Assembly (NCBI GenBank): GCA_008632985.1
Contig: QPGO01000151.1
Span: 1-64,000, forward strand
Length of the DNA: 64,000 bases
Reading direction: 5' to 3'
Source: Psammoneis japonica
Taxonomy: Eukaryota
A program made the position numbers and the translations under genes. How positions within the stretch are numbered: the first letter of the stretch is position 1; every line of letters starts with the position of its first letter. This document shows positions 13,564-64,000 of the stretch, one piece after another. The notes under the pieces were generated by a model. That model was not told where the DNA came from, did no database searches, and saw only the letters and a program-made list of their open reading frames with translations.

Positions 13564-13609
13564 ATCAACTGTCTGCAGACAGTCCACAGACAGTCTGCAG
13601 ACAGTTGAT
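13564..13609. repeat. Perfect 17-bp inverted repeat (hairpin)
   Basis: ATCAACTGTCTGCAGAC (13564-13580) / GTCTGCAGACAGTTGAT (13593-13609); related palindromic run TCAACTGTTGATCAACAGTTGATCAACAGTTGA at 13758-13790. Confidence 0.85.
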
Positions 13610-16044: not shown

Positions 16045-16708
16045 ATGCGAATCTCTTTCATTCTCATAACGTTGTCAAGCTTACTGCTAGTGAATTGCAG
16101 TGCCTTCGTGTCTCCCAGCACAACGGGAGCCAAACTCAATCGCGTTCTTTCCTTGCGCAGTTTGACAAACAACAATGACCATTCAAGGCCGTTGTTGTAT
16201 CAAGTGCTTGCGACACCTCGCGAGAGTGACCTAAAACCAGGAAATTGCAACTTTTTCTACAATGATGAAGTGTCAAGTCACTTGCACGGGTACATGTTGT
16301 TGTTTGGATTGTTTGCTGCAAAAGATGAGGTGTGCTTCAAGTGCTCATGTACCGTGTGTACGTCTCGTTTCGTTGTTTACAGGTCACTCATCCTCTTTTT
16401 CTTATCTTCACGCCATTTCTCGTTATTAGGTTTTCGTAGTTTCCTTTGGAATCTTTGCTGCTCTAGCGGCCACAGCTACCACAATTGGAATATTGCCAGC
16501 CAATCCACGAGTCCCTGCAGTTGTGGCGATTGCCACCTTGGCTACAACTCTTCTTGTTCGCCAGTTGATACATCCAGAAATGTTGGGATACGAGGCTGAT
16601 TTGGCATGGAAATTTGAACTCTTGGTTTGCGCCGTCAATGTCCTTTGGGGATTTGGAGGTTCGTGGCGAACCAAGGAACCCAAGAATGGAGCCACGTTTG
16701 GTTTTTGA
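16045..16708 (+). CDS. Small predicted plastid-targeted membrane protein, 2 exons
   Basis: Signal peptide ending CSA-FVSP (diatom bipartite motif); intron ~16330-16429 gives in-frame hydrophobic helices ending at TGA 16708. Confidence 0.75.
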
Positions 16709-17753: not shown

Positions 17754-17894
17754 GGACACCCATGAATTGATTTGAATGATTCAATTCAGGAGTGACAAAA
17801 AAAGAAAGATTGGACACCCCTGAATTGAATCAACACTAGCGATCGGACACTCCTGAATTGAATCGAGATTCTTTGGCTCAATTCAGGAGTGTCC
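17754..17894. repeat. Cluster of five 17-bp motifs GGACACYCCTGAATTGA in both orientations (probable transposon end)
   Basis: Forward at 17754, 17812, 17845; inverted at 17781, 17878; 17845-17861 and 17878-17894 are perfect reverse complements. Confidence 0.85.
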
Positions 17895-17954
17895 ACGAGG
17901 ACACGTCTTCTCTGGATTGATTCTTCCTGAGAGGAAATTCTCACATATTGCGCA

Positions 17955-19126
17955 TCAGCATCTCTTCAGTCGGGGATCCTTAGGAATCGGACCGCCTCGT
18001 GTGGTTCGGTATTCTTCCCGAAACCGTCGCGACTCGTCTTCGAATTCATTGTGGATCGCATTCTGCGATGCAGCTGAAGGTTGTCCCTGTGGATGGGTCT
18101 GTCCGAGTAGACTGTTGTGTAAGTCCGTTATCTTGATTTGAACGGCTTGGGGTAGCGTTGGCAAGGGCGGTGCAGACTTGGGGTTCATATACGGCATTTC
18201 CATCGAGATGCGGTGTGTTGTTTCATTCCTTCCTCCCGGCTCTCTGAAAATAAAGCAGTCGTATGCCCGTGCTGCTGCAGCATGCTCAGCAAACGTCTTT
18301 TTCGCTGCAAGTATAATGCGTAATGACCAAATGTGAGGGTTCTCATCAAAGATTCAACAGAGTGACATTTAAAAAAAAGCAAGCACGTACTGTACCAAAT
18401 CACGTCCACGTTCGTCCGAGGATCGCGGCGAACAGAATAGTTTTTCGCGTCACCGTAGCGACCACAAGGGAAGATTTCACCGGTTCTGGGTGAAACGAAA
18501 ACGGCCGTAAACATGAGTTGATGCGGCATCCCACCGTCGTGCCAACTGTAATAATCCTTTTTGGAAAGCAGCTGGCGGTGTTTCTTCCCGAACCAACCAG
18601 CAAGTATTGCTTTCGGTTGTATGTCGCCGAGGGTTGAGTTCGACGCTTGAGGAGTGTTCACGGTCTGAGCTGCACGCGAAGGTGCTCCTCCTTGTTTCCT
18701 TCCTGAATCGGCGGTGATGGATGAAAATGATGTTCCTGATACGGACGGAAAAGCCACCGATTCGGCGATAGACACACGACTGCTAGTCGTGGTGTCTTGT
18801 CGTGAACCCTCAGGTATCGATGACCCCCAAGTACGCGAGACCCAAGAAGATGGCACCTTATGCGTTTGGTGGGTACTGCGGTGGCTCCTTTGATCCTCGT
18901 TTGTGATGGATGAGACTTCTGTGCTTGCTATTGAAGGCGTCGATACCGAATCGGCGACAGAGGCGCCGCTTGAGGTTGCGTGCTGCGAACCCTCCGTGAT
19001 CGAGAAGCCAGGGGGCGTACCGAGAGTCCAAGACGATGACGCTTTCCCCAGTTTATCTTCATTGCGATGACCATTTCCCCATCTTGAGCCTGGGCCTGGT
19101 GGCCCCCCTCCGAGACTCGACGACAT
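17955..19126 (-). CDS. Protein with Ser-rich disordered N-terminus and a divergent double-stranded-RNA-binding-like domain, 2 exons
   Basis: PKAIL..W....GMPHQLMFTAVF...WY-T-KKTFAEHAAAARAY after removing intron 18390-18305; resembles the dsRBM KKxAExxAAxxA helix. Confidence 0.7.
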
Positions 19127-26396: not shown

Positions 26397-29300
26397 CTAG
26401 TCACTATCATCATCGAAAACGAACGGCTTAACGGCGGTGGGTTCCTCATCTTCGACTTTATTTCCAAAAACATCGTCGTCATCATCGGAGGAGTCTTCAC
26501 TTACAACCTTGCGGAATCTATGCTTCGGTTTCTCCTCTTCGGCCTTAGCATTAGTAGCATCATCGCCTTCTTCACTTTCTTTGTCGTCCACCGACTTATT
26601 CTCTGCAGAGGATTTTTCCGAAGGAGACGAAGCGACGTCACTTTTGAGTTCGTTGCCGGGCGAACTACTCTCGCTCTCGTCGTCACTGTCATCGCTTACG
26701 TCGGTCTTTCGTTTCTTAGTTGGAGTGCGTGTCTCTTTCTCTCCTTCGCCATCTTCCTCATCATCTGAGCTATTGTCCGAGCTTTCAACGGGTGCTTTCC
26801 GTTTCTTAGAACGACGAGCCTTTTTCTTCTTCTTCTTCTTGAGGCGAGACAGAATAGCTGGTGTTTCATCGTTGGACATATCATCAACCCATTCAGTTTC
26901 TTCTTCAATAGCATTGGATGGTCCACTTTCTGAACTGGCTCCAGGAGCATCGTCCGTGGGGCTTCCGTCGTTGTCGCTGTCATGAGCATCGCTTTCGAGG
27001 CGCCTTCTCTCGTCCAGAAGGAACTCGCGTTCGGCAATCATTCGCAGTTCCTCGTTTACATAGCTGTTGGTCGAGAGCTCACAGAACCGATGAGGGATGG
27101 GGTGTCGAAAAAGGCACTCAACGTGGAGTAAAGGGTTCTTCTCGGCCGCCGCAGCAAAATTGCTCATGACAGAAGACGCGAAAGAGAGCGTTGTGACGTA
27201 GTCCTTGTCGTTCCTGATGCTGGAGTCGTTGAGGATCTGTTCGAGAACGACAAACATTTGTATGTGATACAACATGGGTTCCAACGTAACTGTCTTGCTT
27301 GCCAAGAGGAGTTGCGCGGGATCAACGTCGTCCTCGTCGTTCTTGGTTTCCTCTTTGGACGCAATTGTCATCTTTCGAATCCGCTGCAAGAGCGCAATGA
27401 CTCGATGGTTCACACTTGGTGCATTGACAGCGTACTGCGACAAGAGGTGCGTATACAGGAACACAACATGGTTCGAAACGATTCTTCGAGACATGTACGA
27501 CGTCAGATCAAACTCGGATGCCACTTCCTTCATACGAGATACTGCGTCTTTCTTCTTCTTGTCCATGTTGGAAGCCTTGCCTGACTCATTAGGCTTTTCT
27601 ACGCAAGCCTTAGCATTCAGTTCCAGTAGCTTCAATGAAACGTGGCAGAGCTCCACCAAATCACACGCATACTCCCTCGTAGAGGATCCAGGAGTCCATT
27701 TCGAGAGCAGCTTGGGTAGACGATCGAGCGGTTCGTTCCCGTAGAAGAGACGGTCCAAAAGACCCAACGCCATCAAGTTCTCCGTCGAGTCTGACGACCG
27801 GTACATCTCGAAGAGCATATTCATCATCTCATTATACAATGCGACGGTCTGAGCCAGTTGCGAGTGCTTCTTGTGAAGCAGAAAGGTATCGGCTGCATTC
27901 AGAACCAGGTTGAAGGTGAATACATCCATGGTAAAGATCATTTGTCCCACAGCGTTCGTGGCATCATCAGGACCGGGAACTGCATTATTTTCAGAAGACG
28001 GGTCGGTTGCCTTTCTTCCAGGTCCAGACACGCGCCACCACTGGCAAAAGAACCACACAATCCTGAAAAAGACAACTTTATCGCCTTCCTCAAGACGAAC
28101 CGAATCCCTACGGAACTCGTTCTTGAGGCTCTTCATAACCGGACCGTAACAATCTTTGACGAAACGACAACAAAAGTTGTGAATGGACTTCTGGGCACGA
28201 GCTGCCGTGAGGCTTTCTTGTGTGGCAATACTGGACCTTGTATGAGACGCCAAGGTTTTGCCAGAACCAATAAAGGGTTCGGACTTGCGATTCTTTCGTT
28301 TCTTGGCTTCTGGTGGTGCCACCTGCTTGTTCCCCAAAACTGCAGATCGAAATTGCTGCTTGCCTCCCTGGCGTTTCGAGACGAGCGTGCCTCCAAAGTG
28401 CGAATGTCGCGTCGTGGCAATTCCGCTAAATCGCTGTTTCTCTCGGCTGAGCTGAGCCCGGAGGCTGTCCGAGCCGTTGTTCGCAATAGATCTACTCGAA
28501 TAAGCAACTGTCTTTTTGCCACCGCCTGAACGAGCCGCGTTCTCTTTTCCTTTCACAGTTTTGGTAGACCGCTCCTTGATAGATCGGGCAACACTGGTGG
28601 GATCCTGATACCGTATAAGAGGAAGTATTTTGTGATTACGAGAGTTCTGAATCATAAATCAGCACAACCGTGTATACTCACCTGATTTCTTAGCAAATGA
28701 TGCAATAGCTCCATCATGAGCAAATTGTAAGGAGCGTTTTCACGCAGCTCCATTTCTTGAGCAATAACTAGAATGATCTCTAGCACCAGCTCTCGTTCAA
28801 AAAGAGAAATCAATTCCTGATGTAGTTTAATGTTTCGATGAGATGTCTCGGGCGAACCTAAAGAATAGAGAGCACACGTTAGTCACACGTTAGTCACAAG
28901 CCATGAGGCGACTTATGCGGCATTGCCGCATTTTCACTTACCCTTGAGAAGTGGTTCCGCACTCAAAAGATTCCGAAACAAGTGAAGAACAAGCTCAATC
29001 GTGAGATGATCCGTGTCTGTGCGAGATGTTCCAGTTTTCGATAAAGGCTCAGCCAACAGCGAGACAAAGACGGATAAAAGACCTCCTTGTTCGTCCCCCT
29101 TTTTCGGCGTCAAGTGAGATGAGTGATGCGCCACGGCCCGCTTATATTCCATAAGTATTTCGCTTTGAGCGATAGCGTTCTCACGAAGCTTGATCTGTTC
29201 CTTGACGACACTTACAAAACAAAAGAGGAGAATCGCGGTGAGACTCTTGACGCAATTTTCGAAACCATACGTCGTGAAAGAATCGTAAGGACTCACCTCG

Positions 29301-33037: not shown

Positions 33038-33519
33038 GACTGAAGAACGCTCTATGATCTTCCACCGACCACCATGCCATGCAAAAGGGACGGCTGATAA
33101 GTTCCTATTGCTGCCCGCTCATGGTGATTTCGAAGAAAATCCTAGCCTATGCACATTGCTCATGGATCTGTGAGGTAGGAATATTTAAAAGCCAAGTTTC
33201 ATTTTTCAATTTTACACTGTTTGTGCTCGTAGGTTTCCAGACGCACCGTCAGCTGTCACTAACGTTGCTGGTGTTCGTTCCTCATCCCTTGTGACATGAT
33301 GTGTGTGTATGATGTGTAGCAAGAAAAGGTCAAGAGCCGAAGAGACATCGACGAGACTATAAGGGAATCGAGAACCCAACCCAAGAAGATCGCAAACCGG
33401 TTCGAAGCCAACAAGAAAAATGAGAACGTGGCTGAGAAAGAGTGTGGAAACGAGAAGAAGGACGAGAACAAGAATGCCAACAACCTGGAAGGCCACTTTG
33501 TTGTTGGCATTAGACTGGT

Positions 33520-36500
33520 GATGACATGAGGAAAACTGTGGTGAAGCAGTGAACATGCTGAGAATGGGGGGTCTTCAAAGTGAAAATTGACCCGACCGCA
33601 CACCGTGCAGCCCTCATGAGCAGCCACTGCTTCTGGAGGGGGTCTCTGATTTTGTAAATCCGGGCCTGATGGACACCGCACCCATTGTTCCAACATTTTT
33701 GTTTGGGAATCACCGCAGATGAGAATCTGGCAGTGTGCCCCAGCTGCTGCCGGCATTTGGGACAACGCAAAACCCTCTGTGTGGCCTGTGGTGAGCACCA
33801 GCACTGTGCTTTGTTCTCAACCACACTCACAAGTGTGCTGCATGTGCTGTGCATGTTTCGTCTTTTCTTTGTGGCATCTGGTTGACATGTTGGTGTCAAG
33901 GCAGCACAAGCCACTGCTGGATTTGACGAACTTGCCCCCACACAGGCACTTTTGCTGTGCCATTTAAAGACATTTTTGCATGACTGGCTGACATGTGCAA
34001 CTCAGCATTTCCATTTCAGCAATGTGGAAGGCAACATTGGCAACCCATCCCTGTTTGGGTGCTGGTGTTGCACCTCTCCTTGCCTGGGATGGTTTTCTTT
34101 GAAATTTGCGTGCTTGCTTGTCTTGCCAGTCATGGAGTGGATGCTCTGAGCCACTCCTCTGGTTGGTGCTGTGCATGTGAGCAGTTGCCAGCAGATCATT
34201 GCTCATAAATGCACCAGGTGTTGTTGGCTGGTTGTCCAACAGGGCCCAAGTTCATTGGTTTGTGGCAGCTCATGGCAGCTCATTTTTTGTGTGGTGGGCC
34301 CTGCCTCTTCATGTGTGGCACAGCAGAGGAGCTGGAAATCCAGGGAATCTGGTGCTGCATTGTTGAACTCTCTGCTTCCAAGTGCTGCACTGAAGTTGGC
34401 TGCTTCCACCTTTTTGTTCTTTGAACATTTGTTCAAAAGCAGCAACCTGCTCTTTTTGCCAAGTTGGTGGCATGCAACACAATCTAGAAACTTTCACTTC
34501 TGTGCTTGTTTGTTTTCCTTTCTTTCATTTCTGCCTGTTGGTGTTCTTGAGTGCCACTCCATCATTTCTCTGTTTGTGTGCTGGCAACCAGTGTTTTCTC
34601 TTCTTCCTTCCAACTCACGAGCATTGTGTGCAGGTGCAGATGTTGATCATTTCCAAGCGCAAAATTGTCAAGATGGCTTCTTTTTCAATCCACCACACAT
34701 GGTGCTTGTAATCTGCACCTGGCAGCAGAAATGCCACAGACAAGTGTGCCTTTTTTTTTCCAACTCTCTGATTTTTCAGCATCATCAACTGCCCTCCCTG
34801 GGTCAACTCCTGCAGGAAAAAGACAGGTCCATCAAAGCAATGTTCACAATGAAAGTGTGACATCTCTGACATGAGGGGTGTGACTGCAAGGGCAGGAGGA
34901 GCATTTTTCATCCAAAAGCACAAGACAACATCCTCAAATCATGTGCTGGTGGTGGCCAAATCACAAAGTCACAAGCTCAACAAGAGCCAAAATGATGCCA
35001 GTGAGATCAAGGAAGTTGAGAGACCTGGAAAATCTCAAACCTCAGCTGCAAATGGGTCTGGAGGCAACAAGAAAAATGAAGCAAAAGAGCACTGCCAACA
35101 AGAACATAAAAAGCAACAGTGTCACCTGCGCTGGCAAAAATGTTTGCAAACTGCAAGCAAAGCAGTGAAAGTGGCAAAGAAGAGCAGCACCTCACTCTTG
35201 CACACCCAAGGATTTTCCAACATCTGAGGTGTTCCCAAAAACTCAAACTGGACAAATGTGGAAATCAGGTGCCAATCTCACCAAGGTTTGGCTCCAGTGG
35301 TCATGTCTGGGCATGTGTGCTCAGCAGCCTCTTCTGTGCAAACTTGCAAATGCAGCTGGTGGGAAGATCTGCACAAACTTGTGTCAGAAACCTGCTTGCA
35401 CAAGCTGCAAGAGGCAGTGCTGCTGGGCGCAGCTTTGAAAAACAGCGTGCACAAAATTGAACACACAGAGGACACAAAACACAAGCACTCATCAACACTT
35501 CTTGTCAATGATGCCGCTTTGCACATCACAGCAACAATCTCCCCAGTTGCCTGGCGCTGGGCTTTCAAAGGCATCAAAAGGCTCCACATTGAAGAATTGC
35601 AGCCTTGCAAGCAAACAAATGATGCAAATGATTTGAGCGGTGCCACCAGCCACCACTGCCAACAGCCACACCAAAACACCAGCAGCGGCAACAGCTCCTG
35701 AGTCAGGAGGCAGGAGGAATGGCTGTCTCACAACAATTTCTCAGCCTTGTTGTTGTGTGAAAGCATGGAACAAAAATTGTGGTGCAGGGGTTGCCAACAG
35801 GAGCTGTGGCTGCCATGGATCCCTTCAGGATTCTCCCATGCACAGTCTGCAGCTTGTGATTGAAACAATGTTGACACACAAGATGTCGACGTCAACCACA
35901 TCTGGACAATCTGTTGCAACTGGATTCTCTAAAATGCCTTTCCTCTGCAGGAGCAGCACAAATGCTTTGGGCCATTGAGAACACCATCGGAGAATCCCAC
36001 ATGCAAAATGCGATCTCACAATTTCCACTTTTTGTGTGACTTGTTCTGCTTCTGTTTGTGCTTGTTCTTCAAGCACAGGAGTGCACAGCATTTTCTTTTG
36101 AGGTGGGAAAATGCAGCATGAACTTCATGCAGAGCAAAAATGTGCAGAAAGAAGGAGGTGATCCAGTGCAGCTCACTGCAACAAATGAGCTGCCACAATG
36201 TGCCAGTGTTTGGGACTTGTCTTCTGCCAGCAAAGAGCGCCACACAACATGTTCACATGACTTCCTCAACATGTCTCTTGGGCAGCAGCAGGAGACATTG
36301 AACTTCACATGGCTTTGGCAGGAAAGTCTTTTGTGCTGCCCACTTTGTCTGACTGTCCCATGCCAAAAAGCACCCGTGGCATTGAAAAACAAAAATCCAC
36401 TTTTGTGGCAGCAGAAGAAAGTTTCTGGTGTGAAAATGCCGTGTTGCCACCCATCACAACAAGCGTGCATTTCAGATGTTGACATCCTTCAGATCATTTT

Positions 36501-37700
36501 TCAGATTCAACTGCACATTGACAAAGGATTTGGACAAAATGTTCTTCGTTGAGTGAGCCCAAAGTGCTCACATTTCTTCCTGCCTTTGGTTTTTCTGAGG
36601 ATGCCCAGCAGCATGGTGGTGCAACATCAACCAACACTTTTCTCCAGAGTGCCAAAAAAGCAGCTGCACAACAGGTCAACAGTGCCCCCCCCCCAGAAAG
36701 CCATTTTCCAATTTTCCCTGTCTGTTCAGGGCACCACCCCAACAGTTTGTGAGCTGCCTTGGTGAAGAATTTTGCAATTGCCCAGCGAAGTTGACATTTG
36801 ATTTTGCGTCTCCACGTGCACAGGTCTAACCCCAAATGAGCGATGGCCTCAATCTTGCAAGTGCAGACAGCAACAGGCACAGTTGTTGCCAATGTCTTTT
36901 TGGCAAATGGGTGGCAGACATGAGGCAGATTTTTCACTTTTCAGGTTGGCAGTGCTCAACACACCACTGCCAGGGCAATGTGGCCTCAAAAAGGATGAAA
37001 GAAGCACCAAGTCATGCCCCCCACAATGTGAGGAAGTCTGGGGCTGGGGAGCAGTGCACTGGTGAACAAGTCTTTTTTGGTTTGCATGCATTGAAGTTTT
37101 GTTCCCCCCCCAGGAGCTGACAACACAAACGTTTGTGGCAACAGGAAGAGGAGACATGTTTGCACCCGCCAGGAAGCAAGCAAGCCCAGCTCCTTGTGCA
37201 GACAGGCATTTTGTGCCCTGCAAAACCAAGGTGATTTTGAAATTGTCTTTCAGAGCCAACTGATGAGAATGAGACCTGCGCCAAAGCAAGTGTCAATGCA
37301 AAAAATGACAAGGCCAAGACAACAAATGCCATTTGCATGTGCTGCGTGCATGCTGCACTTTGACATGCCCTGCACAAAAAAGCAGGGCTCTCTCAAGCAA
37401 ATCAACTCTTGTCTTGTTGATGATTTTTTCTGCAGTGTTTGCATGAGATCAGCAAAAATGGTGGTGATCTTGGCGCTCAAATTGATGCTGCATCAACCAA
37501 CCCAAGAACGATGCCCTGCAAAAAACACACACGACAGCGAGAGATGCGAGAGATGTGCCATCACTGCCCCCACCACCGCATCATGTCAGCTGGCAACCAA
37601 AAAGACACAAGGCATGCAACACGACAAAGGAGGACAAGATTGCACCAGCAAAAGGGCAATGGGAAACGTGTGCGGTTTTTTGTCGATGGTGCGAATTTTG
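33520..37700. other. TpA-depleted hypermutated block B (unclassified repeat/TE relic)
   Basis: Same TA/CG loss and TG/CA excess; dense Cys/His-rich spurious ORFs nearly lacking Tyr; family not recognised. Confidence 0.88.
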
Positions 37701-37771
37701 ACCCGACAGTTTACCGTTTTCCCAGTGAGTGCTTTATTCACCACAGGTGTGCGTGCTAAACCTTCGTGCTC

Positions 37772-52081: not shown

Positions 52082-54334
52082 TCATGGAAACTCCTCCTCT
52101 TCCAAATGCAGAGCACTCTTTCTTCAAGTTGAAAGTGACAATGAACCTGTTTTGATTGGGAAAGACAAAGCCAGTTTCTTGGTTTGAGTTTTCAAATTGA
52201 GTTGATGGTTTGATTTGTTGGCAGAGTTTGATTCCTCGGCATTGGCGAAAGACAAACACGCTTCCAAATCAATCGCAACACACATTAGAGTGCAGTCAGT
52301 GGAAGAAAACCACTGGGGATTCACCTTGTGTTGGCAGAAAAATTGCTGCTCTAGATGCTGCTCAAGACCAGATGTTTGCTGCTCGAGATGTTGCCACTCA
52401 AGACCAGCCAGACTGTCGCTCAATGTGCAAGATGCAATGCCACAAAAAGCACAGACTGCTTCTAGACAGAAGTGTCAACTGCTTGATGCAATGTGACACA
52501 CCACTTTAGAGACTGGACAACAGATGGTGTGACACCGCTGGAGACTGGCTGGATTTGCGTGCTCGATGTGACACCACTCCAGAGAGACTCTGCACAGACC
52601 ATTGCTGAGATGAGATGTTTTCTGCTCCTGCTTAAGCCACCAACCTTGAACACTCTAATTCTCCATCCCTGGGACCCACATTTTTGAAAGTGCTTTGCTG
52701 CTGCATCCGAGTTGCTGAAAGCAGCACCCCACAGTCCAAGTCTTCTTGCCAACACTCCTGATTGCCCTCAAGTTGTCCATGGTGAGGGAAGCATGCTTTT
52801 CATGCTGAAAACATTTTTTTGATTGGATTGAGGTCAAGACTGTGGTGCAGTGTGCAGAAACCTTGGCATTCACATGTGACTGTCAAGGGGCTGCTTCAAC
52901 TGGGACAACTGCCAAGGCTTGGAGAGTTGCCTTGTTTGCAGGACGAGTGTCGCAAGAGAGATGTTTCTCGGATTCTTGGGGAACATGTCAAGCGCAACAA
53001 CTGCCAAGGGTCAGAGAGGACACCGGTGTCATGAGAACAGCATCTGCTGCTTGGATTTGATGATGGCCAGAGTCAGATGTGCTTTTGGCATCATGTTCTC
53101 AGCAACTCAAATGACAAGCTTGAGACAAACCCTTGTCAATGTGGCGAAATTTCATGAGGCTGCTCACTTCTTGAATCATCCACTGCCCCATGCCAAGCAA
53201 CCAAAGCTGACATTCCATCTGAGTGCAAGCAAGCACACACAAGTCCAACTCCAATCCTGTCACTCATCATCAGTGCCTCCAAGAATTGCACTGATGACGA
53301 GACTCACCAATCAAAATGATGTTGTCATTTGCGCACTTCTTGTTCCTTGTTGCTCTTGGTCTTGGCGGTGGAGCCATTCATGAGAATTCTGAACAGCAAA
53401 GAACATGCTTGGCACTGCATTCTCACAAACATGATTCCAAGGCAAGAATGTGGGAAGCTTGGGTGAGGAAGCCACCAGATCCAGATCTGCATCGCTCATG
53501 TTGACGTTGTCATGGTGAGGTTGGCTGGGCTGCAAGTGAAAAACCAGTCTGTCCTCTTCCAACCAGTCTGTCCTCTTGCAAGAGCAAACTTTGTAAAGCA
53601 ACTTTTTTACAATGGCTCCCCAATGTCTGACATGTGAGCCCAATCTGCAAGCATTGGTCAGAAGGTCAATGGAGATCTTGGCAAAAACAGTGGGATGAAT
53701 GTGCACTGCATCACAGAGCACAGTGTGGCGGTGGGGGCAAAAGCAGCACATTGCCATTTTCTAAGAAAAATGTGCCTTTTGAGAATTTGCAGAGATTTTT
53801 TGTCATCAATTGTCCTCATTGATGGATGATTTTTACATTGTCCATTTCCAATTTGTGCAAAACACCTGGGTGCTGCAAAGTGCAAGTGAGGACAAGGCAA
53901 AACAACAATGAGCGAGAGCTTGTTGGCCCACATCATTTGATGCAAGTGTGCATTGTGGACTCACCATGCTGGCATTGCAAGAGACAATGGCTGAACAATT
54001 GACTTGCTGCACAAGAAGTTGGATGCCCAAAAAACTCTGCAAATTTTTCGGAACATTGCCATGCAGAATTCTGCTGATGACCGGTCTGTCCTCTTGGTGT
54101 GAAAAAAGGCCCTCATTGTGACAGCAGCAATGGCATTCAGAGCCATGAACCTGGTGAATGCAGGCATGAGAGCACGTCAATTGACAATGTGAGAAGATGC
54201 AAGAAGCATTGCACACTGAAAAACCCATCAATTTTGGCAACAAAATTGACTTTTACAAAGATGCCAAAAGGTGGAGGACAGACCGGTTTTTCACTTGTGG
54301 GGTTTTTCATTGCAAGGAAGCGGTCAGCCCAAGA

Positions 54335-54831
54335 TGCTGCACCAGTGAAAAATTCAGCGGACTTTTTTTCAGGATGAAGTCACAGACCCCACAACCCACA
54401 CATCAGCAGAAGGCTCATGCAGAGCTTTTTAAGATGCACTCAGTTTCATGTTCAATGGACACAACTGGGAAAGCTTTAGCTTCTCTGAAAGCACTTGGGT
54501 TTCCCAAGCTGTCGCTTGTGTGCAAGCAGCAGATTTTCATGTTCTGGCAATCACATGTGCGTTGACACACACATGGGAGTGCAGTGGCTGGAGTTTGCAA
54601 CATTCACACAAACTTGAATTTGACAAAAGTGCTTGGGGAACAAACCTTGTTGCCATTTTGCATGGGCTCTGCAGGTCTCACCATGACAAAACTCAAAAAT
54701 CAGCTTTTGTCATGCCACACAGAAGAGCGGGTGTTCTGCGTGGCATGACGAAAGCCAATTTTCAATTTTGTCTTTCATTTTTGAGATTTTACATGCAAAA
54801 AAAGTCTGCTGAATTTTTCACTGGAGCGGCA
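54335..54831. repeat. ~35-bp inverted repeat pair enclosing ~0.43 kb (MITE-like or subterminal transposon structure)
   Basis: CCAGTGAAAAATTCAGCGGACTTTTTTT (from 54342) versus AAAAAAAGTCTGCTGAATTTTTCACTGG (to 54824), one mismatch at a CpG. Confidence 0.75.
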
Positions 54832-54899
54832 AGGAAGAAGACAAGGAAAAATCTTTGTGCCATGAAGCTGCGCAGAATCTGCACAGATCATGACATCAG

Positions 54900-57800
54900 C
54901 GATTGTGCGTCTGACACTTTCACAACCACATCACACATCATCAAGCACACAACTTGCAGTGACAGCCATTGTTGGCCATGGACATGCGGGTGTCCAGAGG
55001 AAGCTCAAGGAGAGCTCCTTGTTGACAATGCAAGTTCAACAGGAAGACACAAGTCAATGTTGGGAGGAGCGGTGATTGCAAAAGACATGGTGTCTGTTGT
55101 TCCCAACAAAGGCATTTTTGCCACAGCAGTGACATGTGCTGATGAGAATGTTGTGGCTGGCCACCCCAAGGATCCAGAAGAAGAAGAAGCCAAGAAACTG
55201 CTGGAGTCAAGGAAAATCTCCTGAAGGAAGAAAATTTTCAAGAAGCGCAAGAAGTGGCAGATTTGTGCCGTGAGAAGCTCCTGAGTGCAAATGACTTGAA
55301 GACCACTGCAGCTTCAGACCTTGAAGAATGTCATTGAGCACTCAAAGAGAGAGCTGAAAATGTGTGACTGAGACGTGCAATTTGTGTTGTCAGGAAAATG
55401 GGCTGGAGTCATTGAAGCAGCTGCTTGTGTGCTGCAGCCATGCCTTGACAAGGAGCAAAATGTGAAGTCAAGGCAAGATGATGTGGAGCTGTCATGCCAG
55501 AAGCACACAGCAGTGTCATCAGCTGTTGACCTTGCCACTCATGCGGGAGAGGACTCTGACAGCAATGCCAACAGCAATGACAACAAGGATGAAGATGACT
55601 CTGGATGTGTGCGCAACTCAATGAAGCACAAAGCCACTTGGAAATGCAAGTCAAAAAAGGTTCCCCAAGGCTCGCTCCTCTTCCACTGGCAATCAGTCAA
55701 AAAAGAAACACTGCAAGAATGGCAGTGCCAAAAAGGAGGGCAGCTGTCAGAAGCAGTTGATGGACGAAGACTTCCTGAGCAAGCTGAAGAAGCCATGCAA
55801 GAAGTTTTAAAGAAACTTGCCCAAATGGATTTGTTGGTCAGAGCTTTGCGTTTGATCACGGCACAAGCAGGTGTCAGTGTTGCAGCACTGCGGTCACTTT
55901 CTGCAATGTGTTGCAGCATGTTCATGGCTCCAAGAAAGGCAAAACAACAGATCATCATGCAAAGCTCAAGAAGTGGAGTGAAAATGAGCAGCATCAAGAA
56001 AGTCTCTGCTCTGTTCACAGCAACTGGCAGAGCTCCGTCAACACCCTTGGTGAGTGCATTGACAAGGACACTCACATCTTCCATGTTGAAATCACCTGGA
56101 TGCTTTGTGCAACCACCACACCAATCAACAAAGCTGGTCCCTTGAAGCCAATCATGCACAAGCACACAAACTTCAGCATTGGTGCAACCACGTCTTTGTC
56201 AGATTGCTTTGTGACTGCCCGAGAGTGTTGTCTCAAGTGCGTCAAGGAGTGCATTGCAGACAGCTTTGCCAAACATTCTGTTGTCATTGATGGTGCTCCA
56301 TCATTCACCAAAGCCAAGGGCATCAAAATCTGTCTTGCACCCAAGAACTTCAACATCCCCAAAGAACCCATGACTTGTGTACATCTCTTGAAAAAGTCGC
56401 CAAATGCAGCTCTTCTTGGAAAAGTGATGGTGGGAACCCCCATGAAAGACATGTCTTTGTCCTTGAAGGATTTGTTGGCTGTTGGCATGGATCATTGTTG
56501 TGCCAATCATGCTTCAATGACATGGCTGAAGGATGCTCACAATGTTGTTGCATTTGAGTCAAAGTGCAGCTCTCATGCTCTGATCAAATGTGGAGAGAAA
56601 TTCACAGACTGTACTGGGAAGAAAGCAAGACAGCTTCTGCCTGACCAAAGTGTTTCAGTCTCACCAAGGAAAAGCTTGTCTGCCATTCCAGGAGGAGTTT
56701 GGTGTCATGCCATTGGTGAAGGGTGGCATTCATTGGTGGATTGAGTGGGAGATGGCCCAGCAGAACACTGGATTGTCTCTCAAGAAGATCCTTGCAGCAG
56801 CAGTGAGATGCACTGAAAGAGATTGTTCCACCAAGTTGCAAAAAAAAGCAATGGAGCACCTCAATGACAACGCAACCATGGCAAGGGTGATTGTTGAAAT
56901 TGCAGCTGTGGCAGGTGCTGGATGTTGTTTTTACATTGGCACACATGTGCTCTTGAAGGTGATGCCCCTCTAATCTGTGTTGCTCATGAGGAGCTGCTGA
57001 AACTTGAGGTGACCACTGTCAAAAACAAGGCCCTGTGTCCTTTTCTCAAAAAGGCAGCAGAAAAAGCAGAAGAGCTTGTTGCCCCTGTGGTGCACGAGTT
57101 TGATTTTGCAGATTGTGGAGCTTGCTGACAAACTTGAATCAAAGGAAGAAGCAAGGGATGCTGTCATGGCAACAGCAGCAGATGGAGTGTCTGCAGAGGA
57201 GCATGAGACCAAGGCAGGTGGCAGGGGCTGCAGTTGCCGTCATCATCACCCAGGTGTGCATGCCAGTTGATTGCAACAAGCTTGCCACTCCTGTGGCAGC
57301 ACCACCAAACCCTGTTGTTGAAGAAGCAGATGCACTGGAGGATCTTAACAAGGAGGCAGAAGATGCAGAAAAGGAACTTGAGAAGGTGACTCAAAACAAG
57401 GAAGACTTCAAAACAAAAGCAGGAGGTGAGAGCAAGGCCAGTTTCATCAATCATGGCAAAAACATTGTCACACCAGGGAACAAGCATTGCAAGAAGACAC
57501 ACTTCAGTGCCAATGGTGAAATGTGTGAGGTTTGAAAGGCAGTCAAAGTGGCAAGCACACTCAGTCCATTTGTGCTTGAGAGGAGTTCTTTGGAGCAAGT
57601 GCCCTTGCTGTTTGAACTCTTGAAAGCACTTGGATTCCGTCACTTTGCCCATGCTGAATTCATTGGAGGACTGTGCAGCCAAGCAGGTGGATTGATTCAA
57701 GCAGCAAATGCTCCACATGATTGGGGCTCTGTTGAAAGAGCAGCATCTCACAACAAAAGCCCAGCAAGCAAAGACAAACCAGAAGAAAGCTGAAGAGGAA

Positions 57801-58080
57801 TTGGCTTGTGCAGTGAAGTGCAAGTCCTGGGAGGAGGATCCGTCTGAGAGGGCAAGGCAAATTTGGCATTGGTGGCAGGACCACAAGCCACACTTTGAAG
57901 ATTTTGCAACTGCTGTGCATCTTGTTGCTCCAGCTCAAGTCTCAAGTGCATCTGTTGGATGTCTTTTCTCCCAGCTCAAGCTCATTGTAAACTCGGTTGG
58001 AGAGAGATTGTGCTGAAAGAGACCCTGGGAGCTCATCTCTTTGTCCTCAAGAATGTTGTCCCTGATGGCATCTGCCTCGC
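54900..58080 (+). mobile_element. Degenerate hAT-superfamily transposase
   Basis: VVIDGAPSF, MDHCCAN, CSSH (CxxH), IHWWIEWE (TRW equivalent), LEGDAP, and dimerisation domain WHWW..FATAVHLV...QVSSASVGCLFSQLK (SSA.VER.FS). Confidence 0.82.
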
Positions 58081-59014
58081 ACATTGAGTGCAATTTGCGC
58101 AGTGTTCGAAGTGTTTTGGCAAGTGTTTTGGTGGCCGTGGGCTCCAACACACATGACTGGATGAGTGAACTGCTGGACAACAGCACCACATTGGCTCAAC
58201 TTTGCAGCACATCACAACAAATGGTTTTTCCTTGTGGCAACTTGGTCCCCACTGGCATGTTCTGGCAGCTGTGGGTTCCAGAGACAAGTCTGCTGCTGGT
58301 GAAAGGACCATGTCAGTCGCAACTGTGCAGCAAACAATGACAGTTAATTTTTCCTTGTCTGGTTTCCTTGTCTTTACTTGTCCAAGGAAAGTCAGGGCCA
58401 AACAAGGAATTCCCCACAATCAAAAACCCCAGAGGCAAGGAGCGAGACCTGCCACACTTGTGGAAACTGGGGTGCAATTTGGGGGTGCAAATGCATGCAC
58501 CTGATTTCTGCACAAGCAAGTGCAAGAGTCTGAAATGTGACAGCTGCAGCTCTGTGAGCACTGGAGTGCACATTGAACACATGCTCTTGAAAAATTGATG
58601 ACACCCAAGCAGGAACAACTCAACATCTCTAGTTCAATCAGTTTGTCTGCAGGCAAGGCAGAACATTCAAATGACTGCAACAAAACACAGCGGTCGCTGT
58701 TCTGACAAGCCTGGTTGATTTGCAATGACGCCGTCAATGTTGCGCGTTGTTGTTGCATCCATGGCCAAGGTTTCAGCAACCATGTGGCATGTTTTTCTTC
58801 AGAAAATGCAGGAAGTTGCCATCATTTTGTTGTCTGTTGACCAACCTCATCATTTTTTGCTGTTCTTTCTTTCATGAAAACACATCACAATGGCTCCCCT
58901 CCAACAATTTTTCACATCTCCTGTTGACTGAAGTTCATTGTTGATTGACATGGCTGTCATTGTTGTTTGATGCTCAGATGTTTTCTGCCATTGCAGACAA
59001 TGCTGAGTCTGCTC

Positions 59015-59350
59015 TGACAAGGAAAACAACTCTGTTGGTTTTGTTGACATCAAAGAAAACAACCTGTTGGTTTGGCTGATGTCAAGGAAAACAACCAATT
59101 GCTTTGGCTGACATCAAGGAAAGCAAGCTGTTGTTTTTGTTTGCATGAAGAAAAGCAGCGTGCTGCTTTGGCCAATGCCAAGGAAAACAACCTGTTGTTT
59201 TTATTGACATCAAGAAAAACAACCTGCTCTTTTTGTTGACATCAAGAAAAACAGCCAGTTGTTTTGGCTGACATCAAGAAAAGCAGCTTGTTGTTTTTGT
59301 TGATGCCAAGGAAAACAACCAGTTTTTTTTTTTGCTGAAGTCAAGGCAAA
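59015..59350 (+). repeat. ~32-bp subterminal tandem repeats (GACATCAAGGAAAACAACCTGTTGTTTTKGYT)
   Basis: About 10 degenerate copies; inverted copies at ~63390-63515. Confidence 0.85.
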
Positions 59351-59564
59351 CAACATGCGTGGCTTGCGTTTCTTGGTTCCGCCGCCATTGTTGTTGGCCT
59401 CTGCAGTTTCTGGTTTGTTGGGTGCTCTGGGTTTGTCTTCAACTTCCATCTCTCATTGGGTTTGGGTTTTGGGTTCATCAATCTCAATTTTTTCCACCCC
59501 CCACTCTGATCCATTTGTGGGACACTCCTTTGCACCAGCTGCATGTTGTCGGAGTTGTTGGCGC

Positions 59565-60780
59565 GGGTTTTCAGAAAAGCTGTGGGGCAAAAACAACTGC
59601 GGGTTGAAGGATTTTCAGAAAAGATGTGGAGTGCAAAAAGCTGTGGGTCGCAGGATTTTCAGAAAAGCTGCAGGATGCAAAAAGCTGCGGGTTGCAGGAA
59701 TTTCAGAAAAGCTGCAGGATGCAAAAAGCTGCGGGTTGCAGGATTTTCAGAAAAGCTGCAGGGTGCAAAAAGCTGCAGGTTGCAGGATGTTCAGAAAAGC
59801 TGCCAGGGGTGCAAAAAGCTGCGTGTTGCAGGATTTTCAGAAAAGCTGCTGCGGGGTGAAAAAAGCTGCAGGTCGCAGGATTTTCAGAAAAGCTGCGGGG
59901 TGAAAAAAGCTGCGGGTCACAGGATTTTCAGAAAAGCTGCAGAGTGCAAAAAGCTGTGGGTCACAGGATTTTCAGAAAAGCTGCAGGGTGAAAAAAGCTG
60001 GAGGTCACAGGATTTTCAGAAAAGCTGCAGGGTGAAAAAAGCTGCGGGTTGCAGGATTTTCAGAAAAGCTGTGGTGCGCAAAAAGCTTTGGGTTGCAGGA
60101 TTTCAGAAAAGCTGCATTGTGCAAAAAGCTGCGGGTTGCAGGATTTTCAGAAAAGCTGCTGGGTGCAAAAAGCTGCAGGCAGCAGGATTTTCAGAAAAGC
60201 TGCGGTGTGCAAAAAGCTGCGGGTTGCAGGATTTTCAGAAAAGCTGTGGGGTGAAAAAATCTGCGGGTTGCAGGATTTTCAGAAAAGCTGCACGGTGAAA
60301 AAAGCTGCGGGTCACAGGATTTTCAGAAAAGCTGCGGTGTGCAAAAAGCTTCAGGTTGTGTGATTTCAGAAAAGCTGTGGTGTGCAAAAAGCTGCGGGCC
60401 GCAGGATTTTCAGAAAAGCTGCGGTGTGCAAAAAGCTGCGGGTTGCAGGATTTTCAGAAAAGCTGCAGTGTGCAAAAAGCTGCGTGTCACAGGATTTTCA
60501 GAAAAGCTGCGGGTCACAGCATTTTTAGAAAAGCTGTGGGGTGCGAAAAGCTGTGGGTGGCAGGATTTTGAAAAAAAGCTTTTTAGAAAAGCTGTGGTGT
60601 GCAAAAAGCTGCGGGTTGCAGGATTTTCAGAAAAGCTGCAGGTTGAAAAAAGCTGTGGGCTGCAGGATTTTCAGAAAAGCTGCAGGGTGCAAAAAGCTGC
60701 AGGGGTGCCAAAAGCTGCAGGTCGCAGGATTTTCAGAAATTTGGATTTTTAGAAAAGCTGTTGCAGGGTGAAAAAAGTGC
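59565..60780 (+). repeat. 44-bp minisatellite, roughly 27 copies
   Basis: Unit GCAGGATTTTCAGAAAAGCTGCGGGGTGCAAAAAGCTGCGGGTT; GGAWTTTCAG core recurs at 59609, 59653, 59697 (period 44). Confidence 0.95.
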
Positions 60781-60794
60781 AGTGCTGAGTCTCG

Positions 60795-60955
60795 CTCCAA
60801 AGTTGGTGCACCAAGTTTTTGCCCAAAACGTTTGCATGCTGAGTTTGGCCCCAAAGTTGGGATGCCAAGTTTGGCCCCAAAGTTGGCATGCCAGGTCTTT
60901 CCTTAAAGTTGGCATGCCAGGTTTTGCTCCAAAGTTGGCACGCCAAGTTTGGGCC
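60795..60955 (+). repeat. ~26-bp tandem repeat (CCAAAGTTGGCATGCCAAGTTTGGCC), about 6 copies
   Basis: CCAAAGTTGG recurs at regular spacing; unit is quasi-palindromic around GCATGC. Confidence 0.85.
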
Positions 60956-62912
60956 TCAGGCGGTGAAGGCAGGCTTTCGTTTGTGCAAAGGAGAGCTTCT
61001 AGAATTGGTTCTTGAAGGCACCATCTTTTCTGAGTGATGGGTTTGTCTTTTGTGTTGCCCGCCCAGGTGGAGAAGACAATGCTGTCACCCACAAGCTTTC
61101 AAAAAGCTGCGGGGTGCAGGATTTGCAGAAAAATTGCAAGGACCAAAAAGCTGCGGCTCAGAGGATTTGACCAAAAACTTGCAGAAAACCTGCAAGGATC
61201 AAATGCTGCAGGAGCTCCACACTGCTGGGACCGGTGTGACTGGCCATCATGCAAGCGACTCACCTTGCAAGGATCAAAAAGCCCACCCATGCTCATCAAA
61301 GATTTTTGCATGGTCTGTCTGCCAACCTGCATTGTGCAATGCTGTCTTGATTTTGTGTTTCGTCTGATGTGTCAATTTTTGAAGATGAGCAAAATCCACA
61401 TGCTGCCATGCCAATTTTGCAAGCTGCACATCTCACACTTTTCATCTGGTTTGTGTCATTGCAGAAAAGCCAATCAAAGAAATCACTTTGGCAGAGTTGA
61501 TTCAGCACATTTGCTGGGGTGGAGATTTCAGCCATGTTTGTGACAAGGCGAGGGAGGACAAAGTTGAGTTGACAGTGGAAAAACTCATGAGTTGGTTTGA
61601 AGATCCAGAAAAACAGACCAAAGCAGCTTCTGAGCCAGAAAAGGCAAAAAAGAGGAAACAAGCAAACATTGAATCAGGCAAAGCAGAAATTGCACAGCCT
61701 CAACAAAAACACAAAGCCAAGCTGGGAAACAAATGAAAATGGAGAAATGGCTCTCTGCCTTGTTCAAAACTGTGAAGGACTGCTTTGGGAAAACAGCTGG
61801 CAAAGATGACAACAGAATGCTCCCAACAAGCAACATTCAAAAACAGTTTGTCAGGCTCTCTCAGGAAAGGGGCATGGTGGGCATGGCATCACACTGCTTG
61901 CAAAGCAACACAAACCTGATGGCGGGCAATTTGACAGATCAGATTCACTTCAGAGGAGTCAACAGTGATGGCAAGGACAAGGTGTTTTATGCACCCGAGG
62001 AGCAACAGTCAACCAAAGACATTGATGTCATGTGCAAAAACTCATTTGGACAGGAAGAGGGAGATGTGCTCCAAAGGAAGTCAACTGCAGGGGCTTCCAG
62101 TCAAACTTTGAAGATGACACCCCATCAATGGCAAGGTGCAGTCATAAAGCCAAAATGATCCACAAGAACTTCTGCAAAATTTTTGCCCAAGGGTTGCAGC
62201 AAAAAGATGCAAAAGGGATTCAACAAAGAACAGCTGAGAAAAAAGCATGAGCTGCAAAAGAAACAACGGGCCAATCACATGGGGGAAGAAAGAAACCAAG
62301 CTCACAAAAGAAGGAAACAGGCAAGGTTGAAGGAAAATGTCAGCAAAGAATCAGGCAAGGAAGGATTCAACGAAAAAGAGGGCAGTGATGCAGATGGCAA
62401 TGGTGACATCATGCAGGAGATTGAAGTGCAAGAGGAAGGTGACTTCCAAAACAACAAAGGGGATGAAGGCCAGGACAACCACAAGGAGAGTGTGCATGAG
62501 GACAGCAAAAAAGATGAAATTGTTGAGACTGAAGAAGGTTCCGTGCAGCAGATGGCAGTCACCAGCTCAGAAGACAATGACAGAGATGACAGCAAAGAGG
62601 AAGGTGGCCTCCAAAACAATGACAGGGACAAAGGCCAGGACAGGAAGAGTGAGCACAAGGACAGCAAAGATCAGGGTGGGCACAACAAGGCTGAAAGTGC
62701 ACCCAAAGAAAGGGCAAGTGATGCCAGTTTGGCAGAGCTGAGTGGCAGCACTGATCACTGATTTGCAGAGGGGCTTTCCTGGAGCATCGCAGATCTCCCA
62801 AACATGCAGTGCCACAAATCCATCTGCAGGTGCTCATCCAGTGGTTCAGTTGCATCACACTGTTTGGCAAATGTGATGATTCGTTGGCATGGTTCATTTT
62901 TGCTCAACAAAA

Positions 62913-63300
62913 GTGGCCAAGGCCATTGCCACTCATCCCATGCAATGTTGATGCAACCATGTGTCAATTTTGCATTTTTTCTGTTGGTCAAAGTGGCTGT
63001 GGCCATTGCCACTCCCGCACAAAATTGATGCAGCCATGCGTTGATTTTGCACGTCGATCATGCATTTTTTCTGTCAGCCAAAGTGGCTGTGGACATTGCC
63101 ACTTGCGTGCAAAATTGATGCAACCACGCATCAATTTTGCATGTCAATTTTGTGCAAGTGGCTGTGGCTGTTGCCACTCCCATGCAAAATTGACATGACC
63201 ATGCATCGATTTTGCACTGTGGCTCATGTTGTGAGTGACTCCAATTGGCAAAACACCAGAGATGCAAAATTGATGTGACCATGTGTTGATTTTGCACTCA
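62913..63300 (+). repeat. ~80-bp tandem repeats with internal palindrome
   Basis: GTGGCTGTGG..TTGCCACT followed by TGCAAAATTGATGC..GCATCAATTTTGCA, 4-5 copies. Confidence 0.8.
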
Positions 63301-64000
63301 TCTGTCTGTCTTTCTGCATGCTGAGCACCTGATGCAGAACACCTCACAACCTGACCCCAGCCCCTCCCTTGCCAAATCCACTCTTTGAAGTCAGCCAAAA
63401 TGACCATTGTTTTCCTTGACGTCAGCCAAAACAATGGGTTGTTTTCCTTGACATCAAAAAAAAAAAACAGTTTGTTTTCCCTGGCATCAACAAAAACAAC
63501 AGGTTGTTTTCCTTGTCAGAGCAGACTCATCATCGTCCATGATGGCAGAAAACATCTGAGCATCAAACAACAATGACAGCCATCAATCCACAACAAACTT
63601 CAGTCAACAGGAGATGTGAAAAATTGTCCCCGCGAAATGACAACAACGATGCCAATTCATCTGCAACAAGTGACATCCTCTCTTGGAGAGGCAAACCACA
63701 GAAACCCAAATTAAACCACCAGCCGCACTGGCTTGGGAGGCCAAGACACATGGATGCAAGTCACAGGTGCCTGGCCTTGGTGCTGGGACATTGCAAAAAG
63801 ATGCAAGAGCAAAGGCTCCAACACCGCTCCCCCGTGACCAATTTTGCAAGCAGATCTGCCAAGTTCATTTCTGCACTCTCCTTGCCAACATGAATGGTGC
63901 CCACTGCAACCACCTCTCACACCACATGGCAGTTGATTGCACCATGCTTCTTGTGCAAAACCAATTCAGGAACACTTGCATTTTTTGCCACACCATGATC

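Follow-up and report, generated by a model that had tools for sequence, protein, structure and literature searches.

We analyzed a 64-kb window of the diatom Psammoneis japonica, the whole stretch from position 1 to 64,000 of contig QPGO01000151.1 (assembly GCA_008632985.1), and describe here the sequence context of the few TpA dinucleotides (TA) that remain in three TpA-poor blocks of this DNA. The window is gene-dense eukaryotic DNA, with long frames for a kinesin, a topoisomerase, a PP2C, an AMP-binding enzyme and a GAF-cyclase. At 26397-28655 lies a Timeless-like frame whose closest named matches are from Fragilaria, Thalassiosira and Nitzschia, the top ones being 58-60% identical. Together with the transporter pseudogene described below, it marks the host as a diatom, one that lacks a near sequenced relative among the proteins searched. 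A 1-kb dinucleotide scan revealed three sharply bounded TpA-poor blocks, which we call B1, B2 and B3 (a strand is given below only for features that have one):

~8406-15690: block B1, TA 22 and CG 120 in 7108 bases counted (counts taken over 8406-15513 only)
8.4-11.4 kb: left part of B1, a multi-copy repeat with extreme CpG loss
from ~11.4 kb: right part of B1, host-type pseudogenes with milder CpG loss
33361-37711: block B2, TA 9 and CG 56 in 4351 bases, composition as in B1
52082-64000: block B3, TA 33, CG 142, TG 1271 and CA 1304 in 11,919 bases

The blocks differ from their surroundings in a small set of dinucleotides. The strand-symmetrised rho within them was 0.04 for TA, 0.25 for CG, 1.77 for CA/TG and 1.32 for GC, compared to 0.56, 1.00, 1.11 and 0.99, respectively, outside, and the overall TA density fell 13-fold, from 36.6 per kb outside to 2.7 per kb in the blocks. 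Across the twelve 1-kb bins of B3, rho ranged from 0.01 to 0.18 for TA and from 0.09 to 0.44 for CG. TG and CA, about 5160 in total, showed no strand bias at the kilobase scale (TG 2528 vs CA 2630). Loss among the NpA dinucleotides was limited to TpA: AA/TT was not depleted (rho 1.32 in blocks vs 1.14 outside). The shifts in GC and AC/GT follow from the same changes, because TAC becomes TGC and GTA becomes GCA. We also observed that rho was lower in the blocks for TC/GA (0.95 vs 1.20 outside) and for AT (0.78 vs 0.92). The shift from TC to TT could point to an additional C-to-T process at TpC, or simply to the composition of non-coding DNA.

The TA-depleted and CpG-depleted domains did not coincide in the two blocks that lie wholly within the window (8302-15690 and 33361-37711). 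CG rho in B1 was below 0.2 only at ~8.4-11.4 kb and rose to 0.33-0.70 at 11.4-15.4 kb, where TA was near-absent too; TA depletion extends to ~15.7 kb and is thus wider than the strong CpG depletion, and a Tyr-to-His change reaches 15624, at the right end of the block. At either edge of B2, the outer 100-240 bases of the TA-free zone contained CpGs again. B3 continues past the end of the window, and its left edge falls directly after the only N of the window, at 52081; this boundary may be an assembly join, and hence we draw no reading from that edge. A blastn comparison with a word size of 9 found no homology between B1, B2 and B3, with matches confined to the terminal inverted repeat (TIR) pair and the arrays described below.

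As the stop codons TAA and TAG need a TA, its absence leaves long stop-to-stop frames in the blocks. We counted 112 of at least 90 codons in 23 kb, many of them overlapping on both strands, as in the following example:

55372-56142, plus strand: stop-to-stop frame
55542-56198, minus strand: stop-to-stop frame
55788-56741, plus strand: stop-to-stop frame

The three blocks hold 64 residual TAs. Two of the three that lie in copies of a 44-bp array were dropped, and the flanks of the other 62 were tested after strand symmetrisation, which gives two 5' half-sites per TA (124 half-sites). The background was the flanks of the 5160 TG/CA in the blocks; the 1420 TAs outside gave a near-identical expectation. 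We found that 50 of the 62 TAs carried TYTA or its complement TARA on at least one side, compared to 16 expected (P ~1e-18); we refer to these as TY-type. Position -2 gave the strongest signal. A T occupied it in 80/124 half-sites, or 65% vs 27% in the background (chi-square P 1e-19), and 55 of the 62 sites had a T there on at least one side (28.5 expected). At position -1, T was frequent (64/124) and A rare (11/124; P 8.5e-9). Positions -3 to -8 were at background, except for a nominal P of 0.01 at -5. The bias ends at -2 and is therefore not an effect of A/T runs.

Among individual motifs, TTTA/TAAA accounted for 36 of the 62 sites (8-10 expected) and TCTA/TAGA for 17 (7-9 expected). The palindrome TCTAGA occurred five times where 0.2-0.5 were expected (P 6e-7 to 1e-4), and RTAY only twice (14-18 expected). 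A first-pass annotation of this DNA, made by eye, had proposed all three trends, namely survival in TTTA/TAAA, repeated survival of TCTAGA and rarity of RTAY, and had listed 20 examples; each of the 20 proved to be a TA in the context given there, to within 1 base:

53608, 53834, 54254, 54430, 54790, 55808, 56932, 59202, 60526, 61988: TTTA
53594, 57988, 60904, 62145, 63712: TAAA
12848-12853 (TA at 12850): TCTAGA, a TYTARA hexamer
34483-34488 (TA at 34485): TCTAGA, a TYTARA hexamer
52350-52355 (TA at 52352): TCTAGA, a TYTARA hexamer
52461-52466 (TA at 52463): TCTAGA, a TYTARA hexamer
60998-61003 (TA at 61000): TCTAGA, a TYTARA hexamer
53606-53611: example of TTTACA/TGTAAA, the commonest surviving hexamer (13/64 TAs)

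The bias was seen in every block, with TY-type sites making up 16/22 in B1, 8/9 in B2 and 26/31 in B3, where TTTA/TAAA stood on at least one side of 20 of the 33 TAs. The TTTA/TAAA examples of the first-pass annotation all came from B3, which left B1 and B2 as held-out data. In these two blocks TTTA/TAAA was found in 18 of 31 sites vs 5.0 expected (P 1e-7), and RTAY in none vs 7.7 expected. Furthermore, the flanks of the possible one-step precursors of TA in the blocks (TG/CA, TT/AA and TC/GA) predict 26-33% TY-type sites, or 16-19, whereas 81% were observed. Taken together, these results confirm that the flank bias of residual TpA is real, strong, replicated and far beyond chance, and bear out the claim that TpA removal was sequence-selective beyond the dinucleotide, with a target motif. 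The proposal that a run of T precedes the adenine did not hold as a run; what stood was a T at -2 together with a pyrimidine at -1.

The hexamers point the same way. TCTAGA occurs 5 times in 23.4 kb of blocks and 11 times in the 38.8 kb outside, so that its density in the blocks is ~75% of that outside; for TYTARA as a class, the counts are 13 and 26 and the figure is 83%. TATAAA and TTTATA together numbered 0 in the blocks compared to 10 outside, and some TTTACA/TGTAAA sites are probably former TATAAA. The wider contexts of the TCTAGA and TTTACA/TGTAAA sites are unrelated, so they are not copies of one repeat.

To account for the missing TA and CG, we drew up a mass balance with the DNA outside the blocks as a proxy for the ancestral state. 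In 6.1 kb of milder bins, 403 TA and 435 CG were lost (838) while 429 TG and 427 CA were gained (856). In 9.0 kb of extreme bins, the losses were 623 TA and 957 CG (1580) and the gains 771 TG and 775 CA (1546). The loss of TA and CG therefore balances the gain of TG and CA within ~2%. The following features lie inside the blocks:

14758-15693, minus strand: UDP-galactose (SLC35B1/UAA) transporter pseudogene of diatom type, hypermutated, in B1
12063-12692, minus strand: Kelch-repeat fragment (Pfam KLHDC2/Kelch E 4.7e-10, below the curated cut-off)
58904-63627: TIR-bounded element of 4.7 kb within B3, carrying subterminal 32-bp repeats and, in its interior, a 44-bp array
59000-59365 and 63407-63518: 32-bp subterminal repeats of the TIR element
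59491-60747, plus strand: 44-bp tandem array, with units varying as CG/TG/CA
55788-58013, plus strand: candidate hAT-type transposase remnant upstream of the TIR element

The named best relatives of the transporter pseudogene are all diatoms (49-57% identity), and in tblastn it was 41-43% identical to seven diatom proteins, with in-frame stops and one frameshift. None of the 11 columns that hold Tyr in at least four of these seven homologs has kept it: four now read Cys (TGY) and three His (CAY), and the other four hold Thr, Gln, Phe and Trp, one column each, of which those with Thr and Gln fall in the poorly aligned, frameshifted part. The Kelch-repeat fragment likewise has no Tyr in its 210 residues.

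The two arms of the TIR element (58904-59126 and 63407-63627) are 87% alike, and adjacent double changes between CA and TG set them apart, which indicates that one ancestral YpR step was mutated on opposite strands in the two arms. An 8-bp target-site duplication was considered for this element; its flanks match at 6 of 8 positions, the mismatches are transversions, and we do not claim one. In the 44-bp array 23 units read TTTCAGAAAAG and 3 read TTTTAGAAAAG, with TAs at 60526, 60584 and 60750; at the variable step this amounts to 23 TTTCAG, 3 TTTTAG and 0 TTTTGG. The three TAs are mutually dependent and may be C-to-T newcomers.

We also aligned the read contigs of one public DNA sequencing run (X1) to 6000-18000, an alignment that includes other copies 90-95% alike. 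X1 was the single DNA run listed for this stretch, and RNA runs were absent from the listing. Summed contig depth was 380-460 near 9.9-10.4 kb compared to ~50 in the flanks, so the left part of B1 is multi-copy. Transitions made up 182 of the 227 differences between contigs and window, and adjacent TG/CA doubles occurred at five places among the 40 of these differences that were listed. Taken with the transporter, the TIR arms and the mass balance, these copies demonstrate that the blocks were mutated in place. Depth over the transporter and Kelch pseudogenes was 2-3 times that of the flanks, and thus both may be host genes that were duplicated; in that case, the process may be triggered by duplication or silencing and not by a viral origin. 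Loose contig ends at 14757 and 14798 with normal TA/CG content hint at an unmutated paralogue elsewhere. In the unmutated flanks (6000-8400 and 15700-18000), the X1 contigs also departed from the window, by a handful of substitutions and short indels in every 500-1500 bases; run X1 is a different haplotype or isolate and not an exact copy of the assembly.

A Pfam scan of the 112 block frames returned two credible families (Kelch and UAA) and one chance-level match, leaving 110 without a family, and no viral hallmark gene or family among them. Permissive rescans added nothing beyond Dimer_Tnp_hAT at E 0.08, located at 57696-58013. This weak match lies in the expected order within the candidate hAT remnant, which also gave atlas feature matches to DUF4371/ZBED RNase-like clusters (score 0.90-0.94); we treat the candidate as a lead only. 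The 55788-56741 frame within it had no relative at E <=0.001 among 1206 candidates, a set of longer proteins only. A frame at 10421-11116 had a single match, to a bacterial Ig-repeat protein (E 8.5e-5), which we judged spurious.

We then estimated survival from the contexts of TAs outside the blocks, which as a proxy give 856 ancestral TAs. Survival was 12/~633 (1.9%) for TAs without a TY half-site, 39/~207 (19%) for those with one and 11/~16 (70%) for those with two, that is, -3.97, -1.67 and -0.35 in natural logarithms. Counting only the T at -2, the corresponding values were 1.5%, 9.1% and 39%. Log survival thus falls roughly in step with the number of unprotected half-sites, as fits independent mutation of the two strands. 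A per-strand hazard fit with two proxies gave, relative to the unprotected rate, 0-0.02 for TT, 0-0.15 for TC and 0.3-0.5 for TG and VT, and sites unprotected on both sides left 0 survivors of ~250-325.

With CpG decay (CG rho per bin) as a rough clock, 13 TY-type and 9 other TAs fell in bins with CG rho <0.2 (10.0 kb), compared to 38 and 3 in bins with CG rho >=0.2 (13.3 kb; Fisher P 0.002). From the less to the more decayed bins, the density of TY-type TAs decreased from 2.86 to 1.30 per kb, whereas that of non-TY TAs increased from 0.23 to 0.90 per kb. The TY-type TAs thus look like slow-reacting survivors, and the others like later ordinary mutations. The first-pass annotation had taken all residual TAs for survivors; this stands for most of them and fails for the non-TY class, which is commoner in the most decayed bins (9/22 vs 3/41). 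The accumulation of unbiased TAs with decay suggests that the TpA process was episodic, not permanent.

The "T-run before" and "purine after" of the first-pass annotation are strand mirror images of one another, and our data favor the second. In TY contexts, 35 TA were lost but only 17 CA gained in the milder bins, and 81 lost but 33 gained in the extreme bins, with TG gains of 83 and 173. TYTA thus became mostly TYTG, meaning that the adenine after TYT was mutated and the adenine of the other strand, in T-A-R-A, was spared. In addition, all three Tyr codons of the transporter pseudogene with TT upstream had become TGN. In the T-A-R-A reading, half-site survival by the base at +1 was 18% for A, 7.4% for G, 4.5% for C and 2.4% for T, and by the base at +2 it was 18% for A vs 2-5% for the other bases. 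From the composition proxy and the three codons, we regard T-A-R-A as the moderately secure reading of the spared adenine.

The products themselves were asymmetric by context: mostly TG after TY (83 vs 17 CA in milder bins, 173 vs 33 in extreme bins) and mostly CA after RR (TG 74 vs CA 131, and 179 vs 291). Relative to the proxy, residual CpG was scarcest after T (16%) and most abundant after G (32%). The A-to-G and the CpG C-to-T changes both seem to fall on the locally pyrimidine-rich strand.

We propose, with a probability of roughly two in three, that the blocks have undergone context-dependent, strand-wise hypermutation of TpA to TpG or CpA that spares T-A-R-A, and hence TYTARA, alongside CpG decay. 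In this model, the blocks would be diatom repeats, transposons and pseudogenes that have been silenced, subject to an in-place transition process targeted at a dinucleotide, with CpG lost in parallel to the identical products. Each strand would be mutated independently, at a rate set by two further bases. An adenine in 5'-T-A-R-A-3', the complement of which reads TYTA, would mutate at about a tenth of the rate of other TpA adenines. RTAY, which has a pyrimidine after TA on both strands, would be erased, and TYTARA (TCTAGA, TTTAAA, TTTAGA), protected on both strands, would be nearly immune. Most residual TAs would then be slow-reacting survivors, and the minority in unbiased contexts would have arisen later by ordinary mutation. 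The cause would be a base-modifying enzyme, for example an adenine deaminase requiring T at -1 from its target, and the process may serve as a defence; which strand carries the protected base is likewise a matter of interpretation of the contexts above. Residual-TA contexts would in this way expose the sequence preference of a putative DNA-mutating process. Overall, the interpretation of the first-pass annotation is partly supported.

Several observations weigh against this proposal. The additive fit is approximate: TT+TG pairs numbered 13 vs 4-6 expected and TT+other pairs 13 vs 5-6, the former being mainly TTTACA/TGTAAA. The survival fractions are based on proxies (the contexts of neighboring, mostly coding TAs, or of TG/CA in the blocks) and not on observed ancestors, and the evidence base is 62 sites in one 64-kb window. 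Three TTTA-type TAs sit in one tandem array whose other 23 units read CA, and may be new C-to-T changes. The assignment of strand is weak, as it draws on three codons and on a mass balance in which CpG-derived products, with the same asymmetry, act as a confounder. Finally, CpG was lost too (rho 0.25 vs 1.00 outside), unlike in the mutation spectrum of Bigelowiella natans discussed below; this loss may be a second, methylation-linked process, or one dual process may account for both.

Four other explanations have to be set beside this proposal. One is that the residual TAs are newcomers, created by a context-specific and preferential C-to-T change after T-pyrimidine (as when TTCA becomes TTTA at a TpC) once TA had been exhausted. 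The 44-bp array, with its 23 TTTCAG, 3 TTTTAG and 0 TTTTGG, agrees with such an origin, as do the lower rho of TC/GA (0.95 vs 1.20) and the higher rho of TT/AA (1.32 vs 1.14) in the blocks; moreover, non-TY TAs rise with decay, so newcomers do exist. However, one-sided creation predicts, by arithmetic from the frequencies, a T at -2 on both sides in ~14 of the 62 sites, and 25 were seen. TCTA, TGTA and TCTAGA cannot be derived by a TpC rule, and TY-type TAs are rarer, not commoner, in the most decayed bins. The density of TYTARA at 83% of that outside is predicted by retention and would be a coincidence under creation. We consider this origin unlikely for the residual TAs as a whole. Slightly less likely still is a mutator without any flank preference, from which TYTARA-like sites were shielded by a binding protein, DNA shape, nucleosome position or selection. 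TYTARA is dyad-symmetric like the sites of dimeric proteins, and both strands of one site are affected, as shielding would have it. Against this, the sites lie in unrelated sequence of three unrelated blocks, dead pseudogenes included, which makes selection unlikely, and the effect is graded by half-site, roughly additive and ends two bases from the TA. A reach of two bases resembles an enzyme footprint and is shorter than typical protein sites.

The remaining two explanations fare worse. The blocks might be foreign DNA, from a virus or plasmid-like donor that natively avoided TA and CG (for example to escape nucleases), in which case the contexts would reflect donor word usage. Sharp block edges and the 110 of 112 long frames without a Pfam family would suit such DNA, but it is contradicted by the diatom-type transporter in B1, which has stops and has lost all its conserved Tyr, mostly to Cys or His, as well as by TIR arms and paralogous copies that differ by TG/CA doubles and by a loss and gain that balance within 2%. 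We regard a foreign origin as very improbable. Chance or local composition, whereby the contexts follow the A/T-run frequency of the blocks, was the outcome that the first-pass annotation had named as fatal to its own idea. The raised rho of TT/AA (1.32) leans in this direction, yet all composition-based expectations amount to 16-19 TY-type sites compared to the 50 of 62 observed (P <1e-12), there is no clear signal past -2, and the bias was replicated in the held-out B1 and B2. We give this explanation practically no weight.

A broader form of our proposal is tentative, and we hold it at somewhat less than even odds. Diatoms may own a TpA-erasing genome defence like that of a rhizarian alga, either ancient in the supergroup of stramenopiles, alveolates and Rhizaria (SAR) or evolved more than once. 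Such a defence would edit strand by strand, with a specificity of four bases (T-A unless R-A comes next), and would leave TYTARA sites behind as immune fossils, the spared motif being a fingerprint of the enzyme. The CpG loss, too, may be driven by this machinery or by a dual A/C deaminase; this could hold because both kinds of product favor the locally pyrimidine-rich strand.

TpA-directed hypermutation of unwanted DNA has been described once so far, in a 2026 preprint on one chlorarachniophyte. If it also operates in a diatom, it would be no single-lineage curiosity and would occur in major marine primary producers. It would there influence how transposons decay, how pseudogenes form and what becomes of integrated viruses. 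The flank rule is in itself a testable biochemical specification (T-A-R-A refractory, TYTARA immune, RTAY erased), and a deaminase or thymine-modifying enzyme put forward as the cause must show this behavior on defined oligonucleotides. For annotation, TA-free blocks have only TGA stops, and gene callers would yield spurious genes there.

We compared the blocks with other known systems of localised mutation. Repeat-induced point mutation (RIP) of ascomycete fungi resembles the process described here in its localised, near-saturating transitions, its dinucleotide target and its action on repeated or duplicated DNA, B1 being multi-copy in our case and its pseudogene region 2-3 times as deep as the flanks. 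RIP converts CpA to TpA, so that TpA is enriched, as described in PMC2621366. The direction here is the opposite, with TpA erased (rho 0.04) and CpA/TpG enriched (1.77), and the blocks do not have a RIP signature. Decay of methylated CpG would account for the CpG to TpG/CpA part of the pattern, and the units of the 44-bp array vary as CG/TG/CA. It cannot remove TpA, whereas the TpA loss seen here is more complete and wider than the CpG loss. It has been reported that diatom transposons are CpG-methylated through DNMT5a (Hoguin et al. 2023, PMC9998398), and the same paper notes in many diatoms a DNMT4, without assigned function, that is akin to RID, the enzyme of fungal RIP.

Among adenine-directed activities, the first-pass annotation had named TadA, ADAR and Pol eta for comparison; the context spared here fits the logo of none of these, ADAT included. 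Mutagenesis by Pol eta at WA motifs acts after T and after A, and ADARs are metazoan enzymes. Both share with our blocks a favored A-to-G change after T. Both would also act on AA, yet AA/TT is not depleted in the blocks, and our host is a diatom. Bacterial TadA has U-A-C-G as its native site, which falls in the class of contexts that is susceptible here. Fungal ADATs come closer in one respect, since they have a near-absolute need for T/U just 5' of the target adenine and only TpA is lost among the NpA dinucleotides here; they differ in preferring a purine at +1, whereas in our blocks the spared sites are those with a purine at +1 and A at +2. The fungal preferences are those given for A-to-I editing of mRNA by Tad2/Tad3, which acts in RNA hairpin loops, with U before the edited A in 85.7% of sites in Fusarium and A or G preferred at +1 (PMC4817773; mRNA editing by fungal ADAT is also treated in PMC11087585 and PMC11156358). 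The 5' neighbor preference of ADAR, as quoted in PMC4817773, is U > A > C > G, so that ApA is edited too.

The closest parallel is the TpA hypermutation that affects giant-virus and virophage DNA integrated in the chlorarachniophyte B. natans, reported in the preprint of Mettrop et al., 2026 (bioRxiv 10.64898/2026.01.13.699255). According to its main text, 231 of 302 nuclear point mutations in mutation-accumulation lines fell in the integrated giant virus and virophage; with one exception these were A-to-G or T-to-C, and all of these GC-biased changes were on TpA (bioRxiv 10.64898/2026.01.13.699255). The same source gives a de novo rate ~1000-fold above background, counts 124 clusters of TpA-poor, CpA/TpG-rich 1-kb windows in the genome, and suggests an ADAT2-like adenine deaminase (bioRxiv 10.64898/2026.01.13.699255). 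A cluster is defined there as at least three consecutive 1-kb windows with a rho of <=0.43 for TpA and of >=1.52 for CpA+TpG. At these thresholds our DNA contains runs of 8, 5 and 12 consecutive windows, with rho CpA and rho TpG averaged, a formula that may differ slightly from that of the paper, and with the window at 60001 borderline at 1.52.

The two systems share the change of TpA to TpG or CpA on either strand, the kilobase-scale blocks, the clustering of TpA-poor, CpA/TpG-rich windows, and a bearing on transposon-type or unannotatable DNA. They differ in the host, which is here a diatom, and thus a stramenopile, rather than a rhizarian. CpG is lost here, whereas the spectrum in the preprint consists of A:T to G:C changes only and its main text does not mention CpG. 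Host-type pseudogenes are affected here, with no viral hallmark among the 112 frames. As to whether the target is viral or otherwise foreign DNA, as in B. natans, the multi-copy repeat, the TIR element and the weak hAT lead speak in favor, and the diatom-type pseudogenes of B1 and the lack of a viral family in these frames speak against. In addition, we find a flank rule and an immune TYTARA motif, and the words "context" and "flanking" are absent from the main text of the preprint, although its Fig. 2B and Table S2 may bear on the point. In the literature searched, no paper described TpA depletion or TpA hypermutation for diatoms. The phenomenon thus has one precedent at the level of the dinucleotide, while its occurrence in a diatom, the flank rule and the connection with CpG loss appear to be new.

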